From the NCBI GenBank assembly GCA_051750505.1, contig JBNJJS010000003.1:238715-302714 (forward strand): 64,000 nt of DNA. Direction: 5' to 3'. Shown in pieces: positions 18,112 to 52,147 of this stretch. Each line of letters opens with the position of its first letter. Within the stretch, counting starts at the first letter, position 1. Below the pieces are notes generated by a model. The model was not told the origin of the DNA. It was given only the letters and a program-made list of their open reading frames with translations, and ran no database searches. The translations under genes were made by a program, and so were the position numbers. Origin of the DNA: Bacillota bacterium (lineage in GTDB: Bacteria > Bacillota > Bacilli > Bacillales_A > Planococcaceae).

Positions 18112-18921
18112 TTAATTCTTTTTGTTCTGATTGCTTTGTGGATTTGAAGATCCCTTTGCATTCGAGGATCCTTGTGAATTAGAGGATCCTTTCGTGCTTG
18201 ACGATCCTTGTGAATTGGATGATCCTTTTGTTGCTGAAGAAGATTTTGCGTTAGCAGAGCCTTCCAAACTTGCAGAAGCATTAGTGCCTGCTGAAGTCTT
18301 CGAATCATTATGGCTTGATTTATTTTCTTCTTTCACTTCTTCTACTGCTTCTTTAAGTGCATTCGCAGTGGAAGTGAAAGCATCATTTCCAGCTTTATCG
18401 CCATTATCGACTTTATTTTGCACTGTTTCCAGCAATTCTACGCTCTCTTCGCCTTCAGATGAAGCTGTGCCGTCATCCATTGGTGAATTACTGCCTTTTA
18501 AGTTCTTCACTTTATCGACCACTTTCGTCGACTGCTCTTTCAGCTGCTGCGTAAAGCCTGGGCCATCATTTGATTCCCCGGACTCTTTTGATTGCTGAGC
18601 TTTTTCTTTGTACGTAGTAGCCTGGCTCTTCAAGTCAGCTTGCAATTCCTTGCCTGCTTTAGGAGCGAAGAACAATGCAGCTGCAGCTCCGACAAGCCCG
18701 CCGACGATCATTCCTGTCAAGAAGCCGGAACCGCTGTTCGAATCTTCATAGTCATATAGATCATCGTAGCGGCTTGAGGCGCCGTAAGATTGTGGAACGT
18801 ATTGGCTTTGCTCATACTGGCCGCCCTGGTCGCTATATTTGCCGCCCTGCGTATAATATTCGCCGTTATACTGAGATTCATTGTAGTTAGGTTTTGAGTA
18901 AGTATTTTTGTTTTTTCCCAT
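18112..18921 (-). CDS. ytxH: YtxH-domain protein with low-complexity termini
   Basis: FLTGMIVGGLVGAAAALFFAPKAGKELQADL core. Confidence 0.9.
   Translation of the reverse strand: MGKNKNTYSKPNYNESQYNGEYYTQGGKYSDQGGQYEQSQYVPQSYGASSRYDDLYDYEDSNSGSGFLTGMIVGGLVGAAAALFFAPKAGKELQADLKSQATTYKEKAQQSKESGESNDGPGFTQQLKEQSTKVVDKVKNLKGSNSPMDDGTASSEGEESVELLETVQNKVDNGDKAGNDAFTSTANALKEAVEEVKEENKSSHNDSKTSAGTNASASLEGSANAKSSSATKGSSNSQGSSSTKGSSNSQGSSNAKGSSNPQSNQNKKN
18140..18245 (-). repeat. 18-bp tandem coding repeat (GSSxxx) with 36-bp higher-order period
   Basis: GATCC at 18149, 18167, 18185, 18203, 18221; GATCCTTGTGAATT at 18167 and 18203. Confidence 0.9.
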
Positions 18922-36803: not shown

Positions 36804-38090
36804 ATGTATGACATCATCATTATCGGCGGGGGCCCTTCCGGCTTAATGGCTTCCATCGCTGCCGCATCGAACGGCAAGCGCGTGCTGCTCGTCGAAAAAG
36901 GCAAAAAGCTCGGAAAGAAATTGATCATATCCGGCGGCGGCCGCTGCAACGTGACCAACCGCCTGCCTTTGGAAGAAATCGTCCGACACATTCCCGGAAA
37001 TGGCCGCTTCATGTACAGCCCGTTTTCGGTATTCAATAACGAAGACATCATCCAGTTCTTCGAAAATCTCGGCGTCGCCTTGAAAGAAGAAGACCACGGC
37101 CGCATGTTCCCTGTGTCAAACCGCGCACAAGACGTCGCTGATGCGATGTTTGGCGAGATGGACCGGCTCGGCGTCGAGCGAAAACTCGATTCCCCCGTCA
37201 AAAGCTTGCTGATGAACGACGAAAAAGTGACCGGCATCCGCCTGCACTCTGGCGAGGAATTCAACTCTTTAGCAGTCGTGGTCGCAGTCGGCGGCAAAGC
37301 GGTGCCGCAAACCGGTTCGACCGGAGACGGCTATCCGTGGGCGGAAAAAGCGGGACACACCGTCACCGACCTATATCCGACGGAAGTTCCCTTATTGTCG
37401 AACGAACCGTTCATCAAATCACGCGACCTGCAAGGGCTTGCCCTGCGCGATGTCGCCGTCACGGTGCTCAACAAAAAAGGCAAAGCGCTCGTCACGCACC
37501 AGATGGATATGCTGTTCACCCATTTCGGGCTGAGCGGGCCTGCCATCCTGCGCTGCAGCCAGTACGTTGTCAAGGAAATGAAGAAAAATGGCGGACAAGC
37601 AGTCACCGTCCGCATAAATTCCATGCCGGATGACAATGCGGAATCGGCTTTCCAACTGCTTAACAAGCTAATGAAAGACGAACCCAAAAAAGCGTTGAAG
37701 AACGTTTGGAAAAGCCTGGCGCAAGAACGCTGGCTATTGTTCCTATTGGACCGTGCAGGCATTGACCCGCAGCTGACCGGCGCAGAATTGCCGTCGGATA
37801 AAGTCCGTGCGCTGGCGAATGAAATGACCGCATTCATGATGACAGTCTCCGGTACGCAGCCGATCGAAAAAGCGTTCGTCACGGGCGGCGGCGTATCGAT
37901 CAAGGAAATCGAGCCGAAGACGATGCACTCGAAGAAAAAGCCTGGCCTATTCTTCTGCGGTGAAATCCTCGACATCCATGGCTACACCGGCGGCTATAAT
38001 ATCACGTCCGCACTCGTCACCGGACACGTCGCAGGAAAAAACGCAGCTGAGTTCGCTGCTAATTATCAAATCGAAAGCCCCATTGCTTAA
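36804..38090 (+). CDS. ytfP: HI0933-family flavoprotein YtfP
   Basis: [40 protein letters not shown]. Confidence 0.93.
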
Positions 38091-38107
38091 GCAATCGGGC
38101 TTTTTTC
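38073..38107 (+). terminator. ytfP terminator overlapping the stop codon
   Basis: AAAGCCCcATTGC/GCAATcGGGCTTT plus T-run. Confidence 0.75.
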
Positions 38108-38175
38108 TTTGGAATGAAGTTGAAAGAAAAAAGTTGCATTGCTCCTTTTCTTGAAGTAAACAGAATTAAATTAGC

Positions 38176-38582
38176 GAGAGGTTTCATGTGAAATTGTTCC
38201 TAAGCATTGATTTGATTGTCATCTTAGTATTCGCCGCCCGGCTTTGGGTTGGCCTTTGGCAATTTCGTTGTGTGAAGAGTGTTTAATCAGCTCTGCTTCT
38301 GCATACAGTTGCCGGCTAGCGGGGAACTCGCTTACTGGATAAGTTTGGAATAGATAGTGAGGGTTTACTTGTGAAATTGTTTCTGTGTTCTGTTCGAACT
38401 TCACTTGAATAGTCGCCGCCGTGCTTTGGGTTGGCCTTTGGCAATAAGCCAGAAAGAACGTCTGACTTATTGCGTCGGCTCACCCCTTTACGCTCGGCGG
38501 CTTGGAGATTTCGTTGAGTCTGGTGTGTTTAATCAGATCTGTTTCTTTAGGCAGTTGCCGGCTATTAGGGGAATTGCTTCCC
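38176..38582. repeat. Degenerate tandem duplication (units ~38176-38335 and ~38358-38582)
   Basis: Shared blocks GTGAAATTGT, TCGCCGCC, GCTTTGGGTTGGCCTTTGGCAAT at offset 182-183; ATTTCGTTG, GTGTTTAATCAG, CAGTTGCCGGCTA at offset 246. Confidence 0.9.
38413..38503. repeat. Structured element with AAGAACG-loop hairpin (family 2)
   Basis: Nested stems GCCGCC/GGCGGC, GGGTTGGCC/GGCTCACCC, GCAATAAGcCAGA/TCTGaCTTATTGC. Confidence 0.7.
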
Positions 38583-38760
38583 AAGATGAAGCACCTGACT
38601 GGCCAGTTCTTGAATTGGAAAGATTGTTATTTTATTTAGCGGTTGAAGACCGACGTGACTTCATTCTCTGACCTGGTTGAAGCAAGCTCCAGAATATGAT
38701 GCATCTCCAGACCTTCAGCTGATTGAACTAAAAAAATTAACTTCCACTCTAAAACTAGAA

Positions 38761-38882
38761 GACGGAGTGGAAGGGGGCTGACTCCTGAGGGACCGCGCGG
38801 GCTGGCGAGACAAATGTGTCGCGCTCTTCGGCACATTGGCTCAACACCCGCCCCTCGGAAAGCAGCCCCCTGAAACGCAGTC
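38761..38882 (+). repeat. Structured dispersed element, family 1 copy A
   Basis: GACTCCTGAGGG...GAGAC...GGCT...CCCTCGGAAAGC closed by AGGGGGCTG/CAGCCCCCT and two GNA/GNA loops. Confidence 0.82.
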
Positions 38883-38963
38883 GAATAGCGGAAGCTATTC
38901 TATTCACTTCTTTTATATTTCAACACTCTTTACATTTCACTATCATATTAATATTCAATACAC

Positions 38964-41482: not shown

Positions 41483-41700
41483 ATAAAAAATCCCGCCCCT
41501 TAAACTAAGGGACGGGATTTTTCCCGCGGTACCACCCAAATTAGCGCTCAGGCGCTCAACTTGATTCCTTAACGCGGAAAACGGCGCAATCATTGCGCAG
41601 ACTCCAAGGCGAGTTCAAACATCCTGCATGCCGGCTCGCACCATCCGCCGGCTCTCTTTTATGCATTGTATGTCCTACTGCTCCTCTTCACGGCCATTTG
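41483..41700 (-). promoter_or_regulatory. T-box riboswitch (Leu)
   Basis: GGGTGGTACCGCG near 41525-41537, terminator at 41485-41521, specifier CUC at 41611-41613; promoter TTGCAT-N17-TAAAAT at 41712-41740. Confidence 0.92.
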
Positions 41701-44800: not shown

Positions 44801-44842
44801 CAGCTAAATTTAAAAAGGGCTATGCCATAAGTTTCTAAAACG

Positions 44843-44883
44843 AAATAACCGGAGAAAAAGAGATTCTTTTTCTCCGGTTATTT
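44843..44883. terminator. 19-bp inverted repeat terminator after ytqB
   Basis: AAATAACCGGAGAAAAAGA-gat-TCTTTTTCTCCGGTTATTT. Confidence 0.8.
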
Positions 44884-44925
44884 TAATTGTGAACTAACTT
44901 CTTTAAACTTTTAGGATTCACAACA

Positions 44926-45050
44926 GCAGATGGGAATGGAGACGGTGACTCCTGCGGGAACAGCACGAGCTGAAGACCCTGGACTGAGCGCAGCGAGGGA
45001 AGCGGCTGAAGCCGTGCCCGCGGAAAGCGTCCGTCGTAATGGACATCTGC
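44926..45050 (+). repeat. Structured dispersed element, family 1 copy B
   Basis: GACTCCTGCGGG...GAAGAC...GGCT...CCCGCGGAAAGC closed by GACGG/CCGTC, two GNA/GNA loops and GCAGATG/CATCTGC. Confidence 0.82.
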
Positions 45051-45124
45051 CATCTCTTTTGGATGCAAAAAAAGGGCTGCCCAAAAAGCGCATGTTTCAT
45101 GCACCTTAGAGACAGCACCTTTTT

Positions 45125-46159
45125 CTATTTCTCGACAGGACCTTCGAGAACAATTTTCCCGATCGTCTTGCCTGACATCAATTTTCCGTAGGCTTCTTTC
45201 AAGTTTTCCGGATTGACCGGCGCCATCGTCTCATTGAGCGTCGACTGGACCTTGCCGCTGTCTGCCCACTCTGACAGTTCATTCAATAAATGATGCTGCT
45301 CGATCATGTCTTCTGTCTGGAACATCGAGCGCGTATACATCAACTCGTAAACAAAGGTCACGCTTTTTCCGAACAATGCCGGAGCAAGCGGTTCAAACGC
45401 CGGCAGGATCGAGCAGATTTTTCCTTGCGGCCGGATTGCTTCGGCCATGCCTTCCATATGGTCATCGGTATTGGTCAGGCAGAAGATATAGTCCACGCCG
45501 TCAATATCCAGTTCCTTCAATTGAGGCAGCAAGTCCTGGTGATGGTTAATCGTGTGGTGGGCGCCGTGATTTTTGGCCCACTCGACCGTTTCCTGACGCG
45601 ACGCTGTTCCGATTACGGTGAGCCCTGCTAATTTGGCGATCTGCGTGGCGATTGATCCGACACCGCCTGCAGCGCCGATAATCAGGATGTTCTTGCCTTC
45701 ATTGTCCTGCGGGTTTTTCGATATGCCCAAGCGGACAAACAGGGCTTCCATTGCGGTCAATCCCGTCAATGGCAAGGCGGCTGCATGCGCAAAATCCAAG
45801 TTTTTCGGTTTGTGGCCGACGATGCGCTCATCAACCAAATGAAATTCGCTATGGCCGCCTGCACGGACATTGGTGCCGGCATAAAATACTTCATCGCCTT
45901 TTTTAAACAAGGAACAATCGCTTCCGACTGAGACCACAACACCCGCGACATCACGGCCGACGATCGTCAAGGAATCGTCGTCCGGTTTTTTCGAATCACG
46001 CGTTTTGTAATCGGTCGGATTCACCGATACCGCCTTTACCTCCACGAGCAAATCGTGTCCTTTTGGCTCAGGCTTGTCCAATTCCACCGCTTCGAACTGA
46101 GGCGGTTGTTCCGTATTTCCGGGTTTATAAAATCCAAGTGCTATCATTTTCGAAGTCAA
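45125..46159 (-). CDS. MDR-superfamily quinone-reductase-like oxidoreductase (zinc-binding ADH family)
   Basis: VSVNPTD, GRDVAGVV, IIGAAGGVGS; catalytic Zn cysteines absent; TTG start likely. Confidence 0.88.
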   Translation of the reverse strand: MTSKMIALGFYKPGNTEQPPQFEAVELDKPEPKGHDLLVEVKAVSVNPTDYKTRDSKKPDDDSLTIVGRDVAGVVVSVGSDCSLFKKGDEVFYAGTNVRAGGHSEFHLVDERIVGHKPKNLDFAHAAALPLTGLTAMEALFVRLGISKNPQDNEGKNILIIGAAGGVGSIATQIAKLAGLTVIGTASRQETVEWAKNHGAHHTINHHQDLLPQLKELDIDGVDYIFCLTNTDDHMEGMAEAIRPQGKICSILPAFEPLAPALFGKSVTFVYELMYTRSMFQTEDMIEQHHLLNELSEWADSGKVQSTLNETMAPVNPENLKEAYGKLMSGKTIGKIVLEGPVEK

Positions 46160-50398: not shown

Positions 50399-50447
50399 AA
50401 AAAGGTTATGACGCCTTTTTCACAATAAAAAACAGTGAGTAGTCCCA

Positions 50448-50575
50448 GTATTTGGAGAAGCGTTCGCTCGACTCCTGTGGATCAGCGAGGCGACCGAGAC
50501 CCCGCAAGGCGCATAGCGACTGAGGAGGCTTGGGCGCGAGCCCACGGAAAGCGAGCGATAAGCTTCGGAAGATAC
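50448..50575 (+). repeat. Structured dispersed element, family 1 copy C
   Basis: GACTCCTGTGG...GAGAC...GGCT...CCACGGAAAGC closed by TCGCTC/GAGCGA, GAAGC/GCTTC and a GGA/GGA loop. Confidence 0.82.
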
Positions 50576-50601
50576 GACTTAGTATCTTTTTCGATAAACT
50601 A

Positions 50602-52036: not shown

Positions 52037-52147
52037 CTCTTATCGTCCAAGGCATTCGCCTTGCTTCAGGTTGGGCACCATCGCTGCAATTGCAGCAGGT
52101 TGCCGGGTTTCATTGGGCCTGCACCCTCCACCAGCTCGGAATAAGAG
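52037..52147 (-). promoter_or_regulatory. SAM-I (S-box) riboswitch
   Basis: CTCTTAT..GAG..GGTGGAGGG..GGCCC..TGAAACCCGGCAACC...GGTGCC...GATAAGAG; terminator near 51975-52012. Confidence 0.93.

Follow-up and report, generated by a model that had tools for sequence, protein, structure and literature searches.

Among the insertion sequences of the IS1182 family, IS1272 and TnSha1 of Staphylococcus are described as inserting into hairpins and terminators without primary-sequence specificity, and as replacing the target stem-loop without target duplication (Furi et al., 2016, PMC4923244; Wan et al., 2017, PMC5678879). The cruciform model of the second report contains a pathway b in which the whole stem-loop is duplicated (PMC5678879). 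The focus of this report is a 125-nt hairpin module, copy B, at positions 44926-45050 on the + strand of a 64,000-nt stretch of DNA (the window; positions count from its first letter) in a draft genome of 3.3 Mb and 48% G+C, G000, which apparently belongs to the genus Planococcus. It is one of three module copies, A, B and C, in the window, and we consider it highly probable that it is the internal hairpin of a non-autonomous, transposase-less IS1182-family element of ~304 bp at about 44816-45119, that is, of a miniature inverted-repeat transposable element (MITE). The element itself is an ordinary IS1182 MITE, and its new part is a conserved G.A structural motif in the outer stem of the hairpin. 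No such module or G.A motif is described in the excerpts of the two reports mentioned above (PMC4923244, PMC5678879), and no description of the module was found in the literature on IS1182 with MITEs, terminators and ISSau3. Copies A, B and C are parts of mobile elements, not three RNA genes.

Six species (G005, G014, G043, G012, G010 and G046) carry an empty orthologous site, and G041 has the element. The empty sites read ...AAATCAAAAGAGCAGCGTGCATGTGCACGCTGCTCTTTCAC... and hold an intact 33-nt bidirectional terminator, AAAAGAGCAGCGTGCATGTGCACGCTGCTCTTT, between convergent genes. At the G000 site, the A-run (44812-44816, left junction) and the T-run (45120-45124, right junction) of this original terminator are retained, while its 26-nt stem-loop is gone; the stop codon of the minus-strand neighboring gene follows directly after the T-run, at 45125-45127. 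When 12 further copies from five species were aligned, the same anatomy was found throughout: the left end GGGGCTGTCCCATAAG, a perfect A-run/hairpin/T-run unit, an unconserved linker, the module, and finally the hairpin of the left inverted repeat (IRL). Every B-type copy in the alignment is enclosed by an A-run and a T-run, which implies that a terminator stem-loop was replaced without target duplication. Full-length B-type copies are present in G046, G020, G010, G005, G014 and G043. The sequence TTCTCGACAG at 45131-45140, considered as a terminal repeat of the C type described below, was rejected because it is the conserved 3' end of the neighboring gene and is present at the empty sites.

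In the window, the terminal repeats of the element are degenerate. The left terminal inverted repeat, of the right-inverted-repeat (IRR) type (AGGGCTATGCCATAAG, 44816-44831, + strand), matches the family consensus GGGGCTGTCCCATAAG at 13 of 16 positions, and the right one (45104-45119; reverse complement GGTGCTGTCTCTAAGG), at 12 of 16. Between the left repeat and the module lie an internal perfect 20-bp hairpin enclosed by an A-run and a T-run (44843-44884; predicted fold -27 kcal/mol), which resembles a bidirectional terminator and whose counterpart in the full-length element (L094, see below) is located where the transposase gene has its 3' end, and a 41-nt linker (44885-44925) that shows no conservation among B-type copies and no promoter-like site on the + strand. 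Downstream of the module, the right terminal repeat and an internal inverted copy of it form the IRL hairpin (45072-45119; -17 kcal/mol) between an A7 run and the flanking T5 run; this hairpin is homologous to the transposase-proximal end of a 2,063-bp IS1182 insertion sequence. Inside the B element there is no transposase gene, only short overlapping open reading frames of 60-73 amino acids running through the hairpin, and a tblastn search with the transposase found no match in the window copy and matched only contig C25 within G000. Modules give rise to spurious open reading frames (e.g., ...RPRKAS...), as at L081 1466-1816 (+) and window 44883-45118 (-), which are likely annotated as hypothetical proteins.

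The original prediction had read the outer part of copy B as a duplex interrupted by paired GNA/GNA 3x3 internal loops, and this architecture agrees with the sequence base for base. A GNA/GNA site is defined here as 5'-GNA-3' opposing 5'-GNA-3' on the other arm, with G opposite A at both closures. From the outside inwards, a 7-bp stem (GCAGATG 44926-44932 with CATCTGC 45044-45050) is followed by a first loop (GGA 44933-44935 opposite GGA 45041-45043), a 2-bp spacer (AT 44936-44937 with AT 45039-45040), a second loop (GGA 44938-44940 opposite GTA 45036-45038) and a 5-bp stem (GACGG 44941-44945 with CCGTC 45031-45035). On the + strand, which is the G.A strand, the 5' arm thus carries the motif GGA-AT-GGA (44933-44940; contexts T/G-GGA-A and T-GGA-G) and the 3' arm the facing motif GTA-AT-GGA (45036-45043), as supported by the sequence and by sister-copy alignment. 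Further inwards, the 5' box GACTCCTG (44947-44954, +), invariant in alignment A1, and the invariant 3' box CGGAAAGC (45021-45028, +) face each other with partial complementarity: G-C, A.G, C.A, T-A, C.A, C-G, T.G, G-C. The minimum free energy fold of the + strand as RNA (-57.8 kcal/mol, z = -3.6, none of 200 shuffles as stable) reproduces the outer architecture exactly, whereas the fold of the complementary strand is weaker (-54.1 kcal/mol, z = -2.5).

The other two copies in the window were also correctly read. Copy A runs 3 bp, GGA/GCA, GT/AC, GGA/GAA and an inner stem of 8-9 bp, and it has in addition a third, outer GAA/GAA site; copy C has a single GGA/GGA. Within the B-type family, the loop that faces GGA has T, A or C in the middle (A or C in the sisters of copy B) with the flanking G and A constant, and the outer stem shows exchange of A-T for T-A. 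A purine-purine theme like that of the outer stem is seen at the apex, where 43 of 113 predicted loops over all copies are closed by G..A, most commonly as C[GAA]G; at this frequency, apical GNA triloops were rejected as a rule and are regarded as an enrichment instead. The apex also varies in length, as modules with cores of 149-156 nt carry a two-hairpin insertion of ~70 nt there (G000 C8:63107, C9:69939, C14:48638, C7:136940 and others). A recurrent insertion of 24-25 nt (TGACGGAGCCTTGCGACGGA..) occurs in other module copies, including the G041 orthologue of B.

Conservation of the motif was assessed outwards from the boxes, of which the 5' box served as anchor for the genus and class censuses. 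Whole-module alignment by MAFFT with RNAalifold resolved just the inner stem and the boxes and misaligned the outer arms, and was replaced by two procedures: a dynamic-programming match of the 5' and 3' flanks of each copy, a method that favors pairing, and a loop-anchored alignment, A2, of 29 distinct sequences, chosen on their G.A closures and with the arms joined by an artificial TTTT linker. For the genus, 94 distinct arm pairs were clustered into 39 lineages, which are related by descent. Counting how often G.A closure is retained, as had been proposed, gave at least one GNA/GNA site in 58 of the 65 anchor-defined candidate copies of G000, and a double site with a 2-bp spacer in 21; of the seven candidates that lack a site, five resemble false anchors and another has a decayed GGA/GGG. 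Across the genus, 32 of the 39 arm lineages keep at least one site and 14 a double site, so that the sequence at these positions is not random in other copies. The number of sites per copy ranges from one to three with constant form: some lineages have a single GAA/GAA directly against the boxes and then a long perfect stem, and in other Bacilli families the same double loops recur, together with triple loops of period 5 in L067 and L069.

The motif has a fixed polarity, with 44 GNA/GNA sites against none reversed in the 39 lineages, and a fixed setting, 5'-Y-GNA-R-3', with a pyrimidine before the G and a purine after the A in 114 of 116 cases in A2. In copy B the contexts are G-GGA-A, in which G44932 on the 5' arm breaks the pyrimidine rule, T-GGA-G, C-GTA-A and T-GGA-C. 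Among the non-Watson-Crick oppositions of the arms, G.A/A.G account for 345 of 648, compared with 26 C.T/T.C. The stems that flank the loops are 91-98% paired in A2, every pair shows compensatory change, and the closing pairs covary between U-A and C-G; none of 500 shuffles reaches the observed pairing, and sliding the partner columns reduces it to 30-52%. As had been stated, the 2-bp spacer changes in sequence and stays paired: in five lineages GT faces AC, its complement and a different dinucleotide, which argues for intrastrand pairing over a duplex direct repeat. The description as 3x3 internal loops was borne out for the G.A closures and in part for the middle base, which forms a Watson-Crick or wobble pair in 20 of 44 lineage sites (~45%) and is paired in 34-48% of the A2 sequences; many of these loops are therefore two isolated G.A mismatches around one pair.

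Isolated arm mismatches comprise 32 G.T and 17 A.C, and the variable stems of A2 have 12 G.T and 3 A.C; the count over the entire hairpin (130 versus 147) is uninformative, since the invariant boxes add fixed T.G and C.A oppositions, and the variable stems alone are usable. Of 103 copies, 89 are predicted with RNA parameters, and 94 with DNA parameters, to be more stable on the G.A strand than on the complementary one. Furthermore, in 23 C-type MITEs the arms and boxes of the module are nearly invariant and form the least variable part of the element, whereas the 100 nt on the IRR side vary at 10-50% of copies per column. Because the G.A closures are kept while the surrounding stems turn over by compensatory change, we regard the motif as a conserved feature, and selection on it as very likely.

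The link to IS1182 transposition comes from full-length relatives. In G043, B-type ends (GGGGCTGTCCCAWAAG) form inverted pairs 2,063 bp apart seven times. One such element, L094 (G043:C1:1253380-1255640), encodes a 587-amino-acid frame with the domains DUF772, DDE_Tnp_1 and DDE_Tnp_1_6, which scores 447.6 bits on the NCBIfam model NF033551 'IS1182 family transposase' (cut-off 270), and the stretch 44926-45124 of the window is 82-84% identical to the transposase-proximal end of these elements. The transposase frame of the L094-type element, which is present in seven copies, lacks an internal stop codon and stays open across the right terminal repeat into the flanking DNA; this open-ended frame recalls the literature account of the TnSha1 copy of IS1272.

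In G000, a second IS1182 lineage is represented by contig C25, a collapsed sequence of 1,661 bp whose transposase has 25% amino acid identity to the first and whose module occupies the same place in the same orientation. C25 (L001, 1-1661) is the only full-length IS1182 copy assembled in G000, and its transposase is split into frames of 190 and 255 amino acids at an A-run (GGAAAAAAGCC), which could reflect a frameshift mutation, programmed slippage or an assembly artifact. Truncated transposase remnants adjoin modules in another genus and another family (L081, L028), and the arrangement recurs in L121, an insertion sequence of a third type. A positional rule emerges from these elements: the module is found 20-70 nt inwards of the IRL hairpin, and the promoter and ribosome-binding site of the transposase follow downstream of it. 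With respect to the transposase gene, the G.A strand is the antisense one, and its 5'->3' direction points to the IRL tip. The hairpin feature is single-strand-specific, structure-constrained, attached to IS1182 left ends in a fixed orientation, and very probably kept by selection at the level of the element. At the left ends of L032 (1281-1306) and L034-L037, an inverted copy lies next to the terminal repeat and pairs with it, and a T-run comes after; each of these left ends is itself terminator-like in the transposase-sense direction.

Copy C (window ~50404-50600) and at least 20 others belong to a second type of MITE, the C type, of ~300 bp with the ends CAGAGTGTTGAAGAAG and CAGGCTGTCGAGAAAC. 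At least 15 C-type copies (e.g., those outside the window at G000 C3:88174, C3:134379 and C13:44078) are flanked by exact direct repeats of 22-36 nt that comprise a whole terminator, with A-run, hairpin and T-run, and the copy C site shows presence/absence polymorphism at orthologous loci. Two IS1182 lineages in one genus therefore have two insertion outcomes: the B type replaces the stem-loop and the C type duplicates the terminator. The solo module was rejected as a mobile unit, as long flanking direct repeats occur only around complete C-type MITEs and not directly around the hairpins. Adjacent modules ~200 nt apart are, in many genomes, always arranged -/+ with their 3' ends outward (e.g., G000 C7:136667(-)/136940(+) and G021:C46:27543(-)/27727(+)), which suggests MITEs built from two left ends.

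The module is abundant and widespread. In G000, a core regular expression finds 33 copies, the looser anchor search the 65 candidates mentioned above, and nhmmer 117 matches, which include separate halves of copies that insertions have interrupted. All 24 sampled species of the genus contain the core pattern, as do 85 of the 401 Bacilli genomes sampled (31 of 145 genera), where a reversed control pattern is hardly ever matched; a BLAST search against plasmids gave two matches only. Relative to tandem host genes the orientation of the module is unbiased (16 co-oriented, 17 opposed), and 22 copies lie between convergent genes. The stretch of ~650 nt upstream of and including copy A (within window 37600-38925) is itself a repeat, with dozens of copies of 70-80% identity in G041, and it overlaps a degenerate tandem duplication at 38172-38579.

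How might such a hairpin serve its element? The explanation that we regard as the best, and to which as a whole we give an even chance, is that the module is an internal hairpin of an IS1182 MITE that acts in cis as a strand-specific folded DNA, read by a hairpin-recognizing transposase; a DNA-level cis recognition role, taken by itself, is plausible at a little less than that. The hairpin would be folded from, or extruded on, the G.A strand. Its G.A motifs would stabilize the fold of their own strand over that of the complement, and the Y-GNA-R motifs would offer a strand-specific surface to a shape-reading protein, a transposase or a host factor, of which the hairpin-targeting IS1182 transposase would be the most plausible. 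In the general DDE mechanism, the 3'-OH is transferred on the strand running 5'->3' to the IRL tip; the G.A strand would end as this transferred strand at the IRL, and the motifs, with their strict polarity, would lie on the strand with the transferred 3' end. A DNA-level role in cis is favored because the module in the B-type element is bracketed by bidirectional terminator-like hairpins and has no promoter-like site, and because the module is unbiased in orientation to host genes, and belongs to a family whose biology is one of DNA-hairpin recognition. The original prediction had envisaged a periodic binding surface for a trans-acting protein such as a transposase or an RNA-binding factor. 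Since then, the closures have proved conserved and very probably selected, and the transposon link has made a transposase a reasonable candidate, while an RNA-binding factor has become less likely for copy B, given the bracketing hairpins, the lack of a promoter-like site and the unconserved linker.

Several observations weigh against a transposase-read hairpin. The close relatives of C25, L034-L037 (70-83% amino acid identity), are without the module and have the IRL hairpin and T-run followed by the promoter. A search of 201 Bacilli genomes for IS1182 loci showed no module at 27-28 of the 30 best, and L121 alone among them carries it internally. As many IS1182 elements lack it, the module is accessory, dispensable for transposition as such and not essential to its chemistry. 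Replication orientation is 42:21 in G000 (by GC skew), compared with 15:14 in G018 and 11:9 in G010, two complete relatives with dnaA at position 1; coupling to the replication fork was dropped for this reason, and the absence of a consistent bias argues against a lagging-strand mechanism on single-stranded DNA. Moreover, the invariant boxes pair somewhat better on the transposase-sense strand, by two G.T wobbles, than on the G.A strand, and the homologous region of Staphylococcus aureus, tsr24, is a detected transcript of the same strand. Binding and any effect on transposition are putative, and the conservation figures come from related lineages, from arm alignments that favor pairing, and from an alignment selected on closures with an artificial linker.

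The main rival, which we consider unlikely, places the function at the level of RNA: the G.A strand would be transcribed outwards, antisense to the transposase side, as a stable rod-like RNA whose loops and CUCCU box are protein- or mRNA-binding sites, for example as an antisense or decoy regulator of transposase translation or as a small RNA co-opted by the host. The strand asymmetry and the excess of G.T over A.C accord with this idea; the box GACUCCU is, in our reading, complementary to AGGAGU in the ribosome-binding site of the C25 transposase; and a transcript of the G.A strand would be terminated by the IRL hairpin with its T-run, or by a duplicated terminator. However, no promoter-like site precedes A, B or C on the + strand, B-type copies do not conserve the linker that leads into the module and have terminator-like hairpins working in both directions on either side of it, and the G043-type insertion sequence does not retain the match between box and ribosome-binding site. 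A single antisense promoter-like site, with 9 of 12 matches, was seen in L032 and is not shared by its relatives, and an antisense promoter resembling that of RNA-OUT, once a candidate in its own right, was relegated to this rival for that reason. The covariation of a folded strand that characterizes structured non-coding RNAs is present in the module, but a folded single DNA strand is expected to give the same signal, so that it does not discriminate.

The RNA reading rests on tsr24, the only homologue known to be transcribed, a 237-nt intergenic transcript of S. aureus detected at low level by RNA-seq and reverse transcription PCR, and absent from strain MRSA252 (Carroll et al., 2016, PMC4752604). 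Rfam has no family for the module, and its sole match is to this model (RF02577), on the same strand, at 25.8 and 22.8 bits (E = 5e-4 to 2e-3) against a gathering score of 50; both this sub-threshold score and the low level of tsr24 speak against the RNA reading. Positions 131-202 of the model hold the same core (GACUCCUGNGGGA..GAAGACC..CCCNGGAAAGCG), and the locus is variably present among S. aureus strains; the match extends no further than the inner stem, however, and leaves the outer stem with its GNA/GNA sites uncovered. To judge by sequence, this is homology of the core and not membership of the family.

An improbable alternative is that the motif has no specific function, the G.A mismatches being tolerated ancestral imperfections that keep a long palindrome imperfect and thereby avoid SbcCD cleavage or cruciform instability. 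The dispensability of the module for many IS1182 elements would fit, as would the descent of all copies from one family, through which shared features can be ancestral. G.A is, in addition, the most stable mismatch, and hence the imperfection likeliest to survive. Against this, the stems are fully turned over between lineages with the G and A fixed, at a polarity of 44:0 and with the Y/R neighbors in nearly every context; the number of sites varies but their form does not; and the arms are the least variable part of the C-type MITEs, with the motif kept across Bacilli families. Still more doubtful, and very improbable in our view, is a reading in which a GGAGYGGAA direct repeat, once per arm, is bound as duplex DNA and the hairpin potential is incidental. 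Near-identical purine-rich 8-10-mers do lie in both arms on the same strand, ~100 bp apart, but the non-self-complementary spacer faces its complement and not the same dinucleotide, the closing pairs and the flanking stems covary, and the fixed bases are only the G and A at positions 1, 3, 6 and 8, unlike a duplex recognition site. That the module is a free-standing, non-mobile structured RNA gene family is scarcely credible, for despite its stable fold and covariation, the presence/absence polymorphism with empty sites at B and C contradicts it, terminal inverted repeats and autonomous IS1182 partners exist, C-type copies are flanked by whole-terminator duplications, and no promoter was found.

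The transposase-read hairpin can also be taken further. In its broadest form, which is rather unlikely, the module would be a class-wide, strand-specific folded-DNA site for a shape-reading DDE transposase, in which a Y-GNA-R/Y-GNA-R 'zipper' encodes which strand folds and where the protein docks. If true, a family believed to work on duplex DNA would possess a counterpart of the hairpins of integron attC or IS608. As a variant, some inserted copies may have been taken over by the host, which is noted beside the identity of the B element between G000 and G041: ~97% (8 substitutions and one 24-nt indel in ~304 nt), compared with 84-95% in 100-nt windows, and about 91% overall, for the genes that flank it. 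The G041 flanks at B are no closer to G000 than those of the six empty-site species. G041 has no copy C, and its copy A region is just 76% identical, which shows that the high identity of B is not family-wide; it could reflect selection on the insertion or a recent short allelic transfer.

Elsewhere in the window, the only Rfam matches above the gathering score are a T-box leader (41505-41700, -; 125 bits) and an SAM riboswitch (52037-52147, -; 66 bits). An 18-nt tandem repeat of five or more units with a ..GATCC.. periodicity, probably coding, lies at 18136-18243.

With respect to known systems, the motif itself has a parallel in DNA structure. The (GGA)2/(GNA)2 sheared G.A 'zipper' was reportedly described by Chou, Zhu and Reid (J Mol Biol 1994), for example in the TGGAA repeats of human satellite III. 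Both share a self-opposed 5'-Y-GNA-R-3' in which G.A closures bracket a variable middle, and copy B even reads TGGGAATGGAG; the sequence pattern of the (GNA)2 motif, Y-G-N-A-R on both strands with G opposite A at the closures, is found in 114 of the 116 contexts from 29 sequences. In contrast to the zipper, the module is a hairpin of a bacterial insertion sequence, its sheared geometry is putative, and its middle residues are often Watson-Crick paired. As a dispersed, intergenic and hairpin-forming repeat of ~100-300 bp with size variants due to internal insertions, it resembles the ERIC/IRU, Correia, bcr1 and RUP families. We know of no described counterpart of the conserved G.A motif in these families, and the B type differs from them in that an autonomous partner and a hairpin-targeted mode of insertion are identified. 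The integron attC sites and the subterminal hairpins of IS608 may work alike, with conservation of fold over sequence, one strand distinguished by non-canonical positions, and a variable apex. Those sites are, however, read on single-stranded DNA by tyrosine recombinases or HUH enzymes, whereas the module shows no consistent bias in replication orientation; to our knowledge, no single-stranded step is described for IS1182 DDE transposases.

IS1272 and TnSha1 themselves are also close: the B type shares with them an IS1182-family DDE transposase as partner, the replacement of a terminator stem-loop, and ends that form hairpins, and the whole-terminator duplication of the C type corresponds to pathway b of Wan's model. 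Unlike these elements, copy B is non-autonomous, contains the 125-nt G.A hairpin module, and resides in Planococcus instead of Staphylococcus. The module accounts for widespread spurious small open reading frames and for 'small RNA' annotations of the tsr24 kind in Bacilli genomes. Moreover, as IS1272 and TnSha1 target hairpins and not sequences, a conserved 125-nt hairpin beside the left end of some members of their family provides a concrete, mutable substrate for the study of shape recognition.

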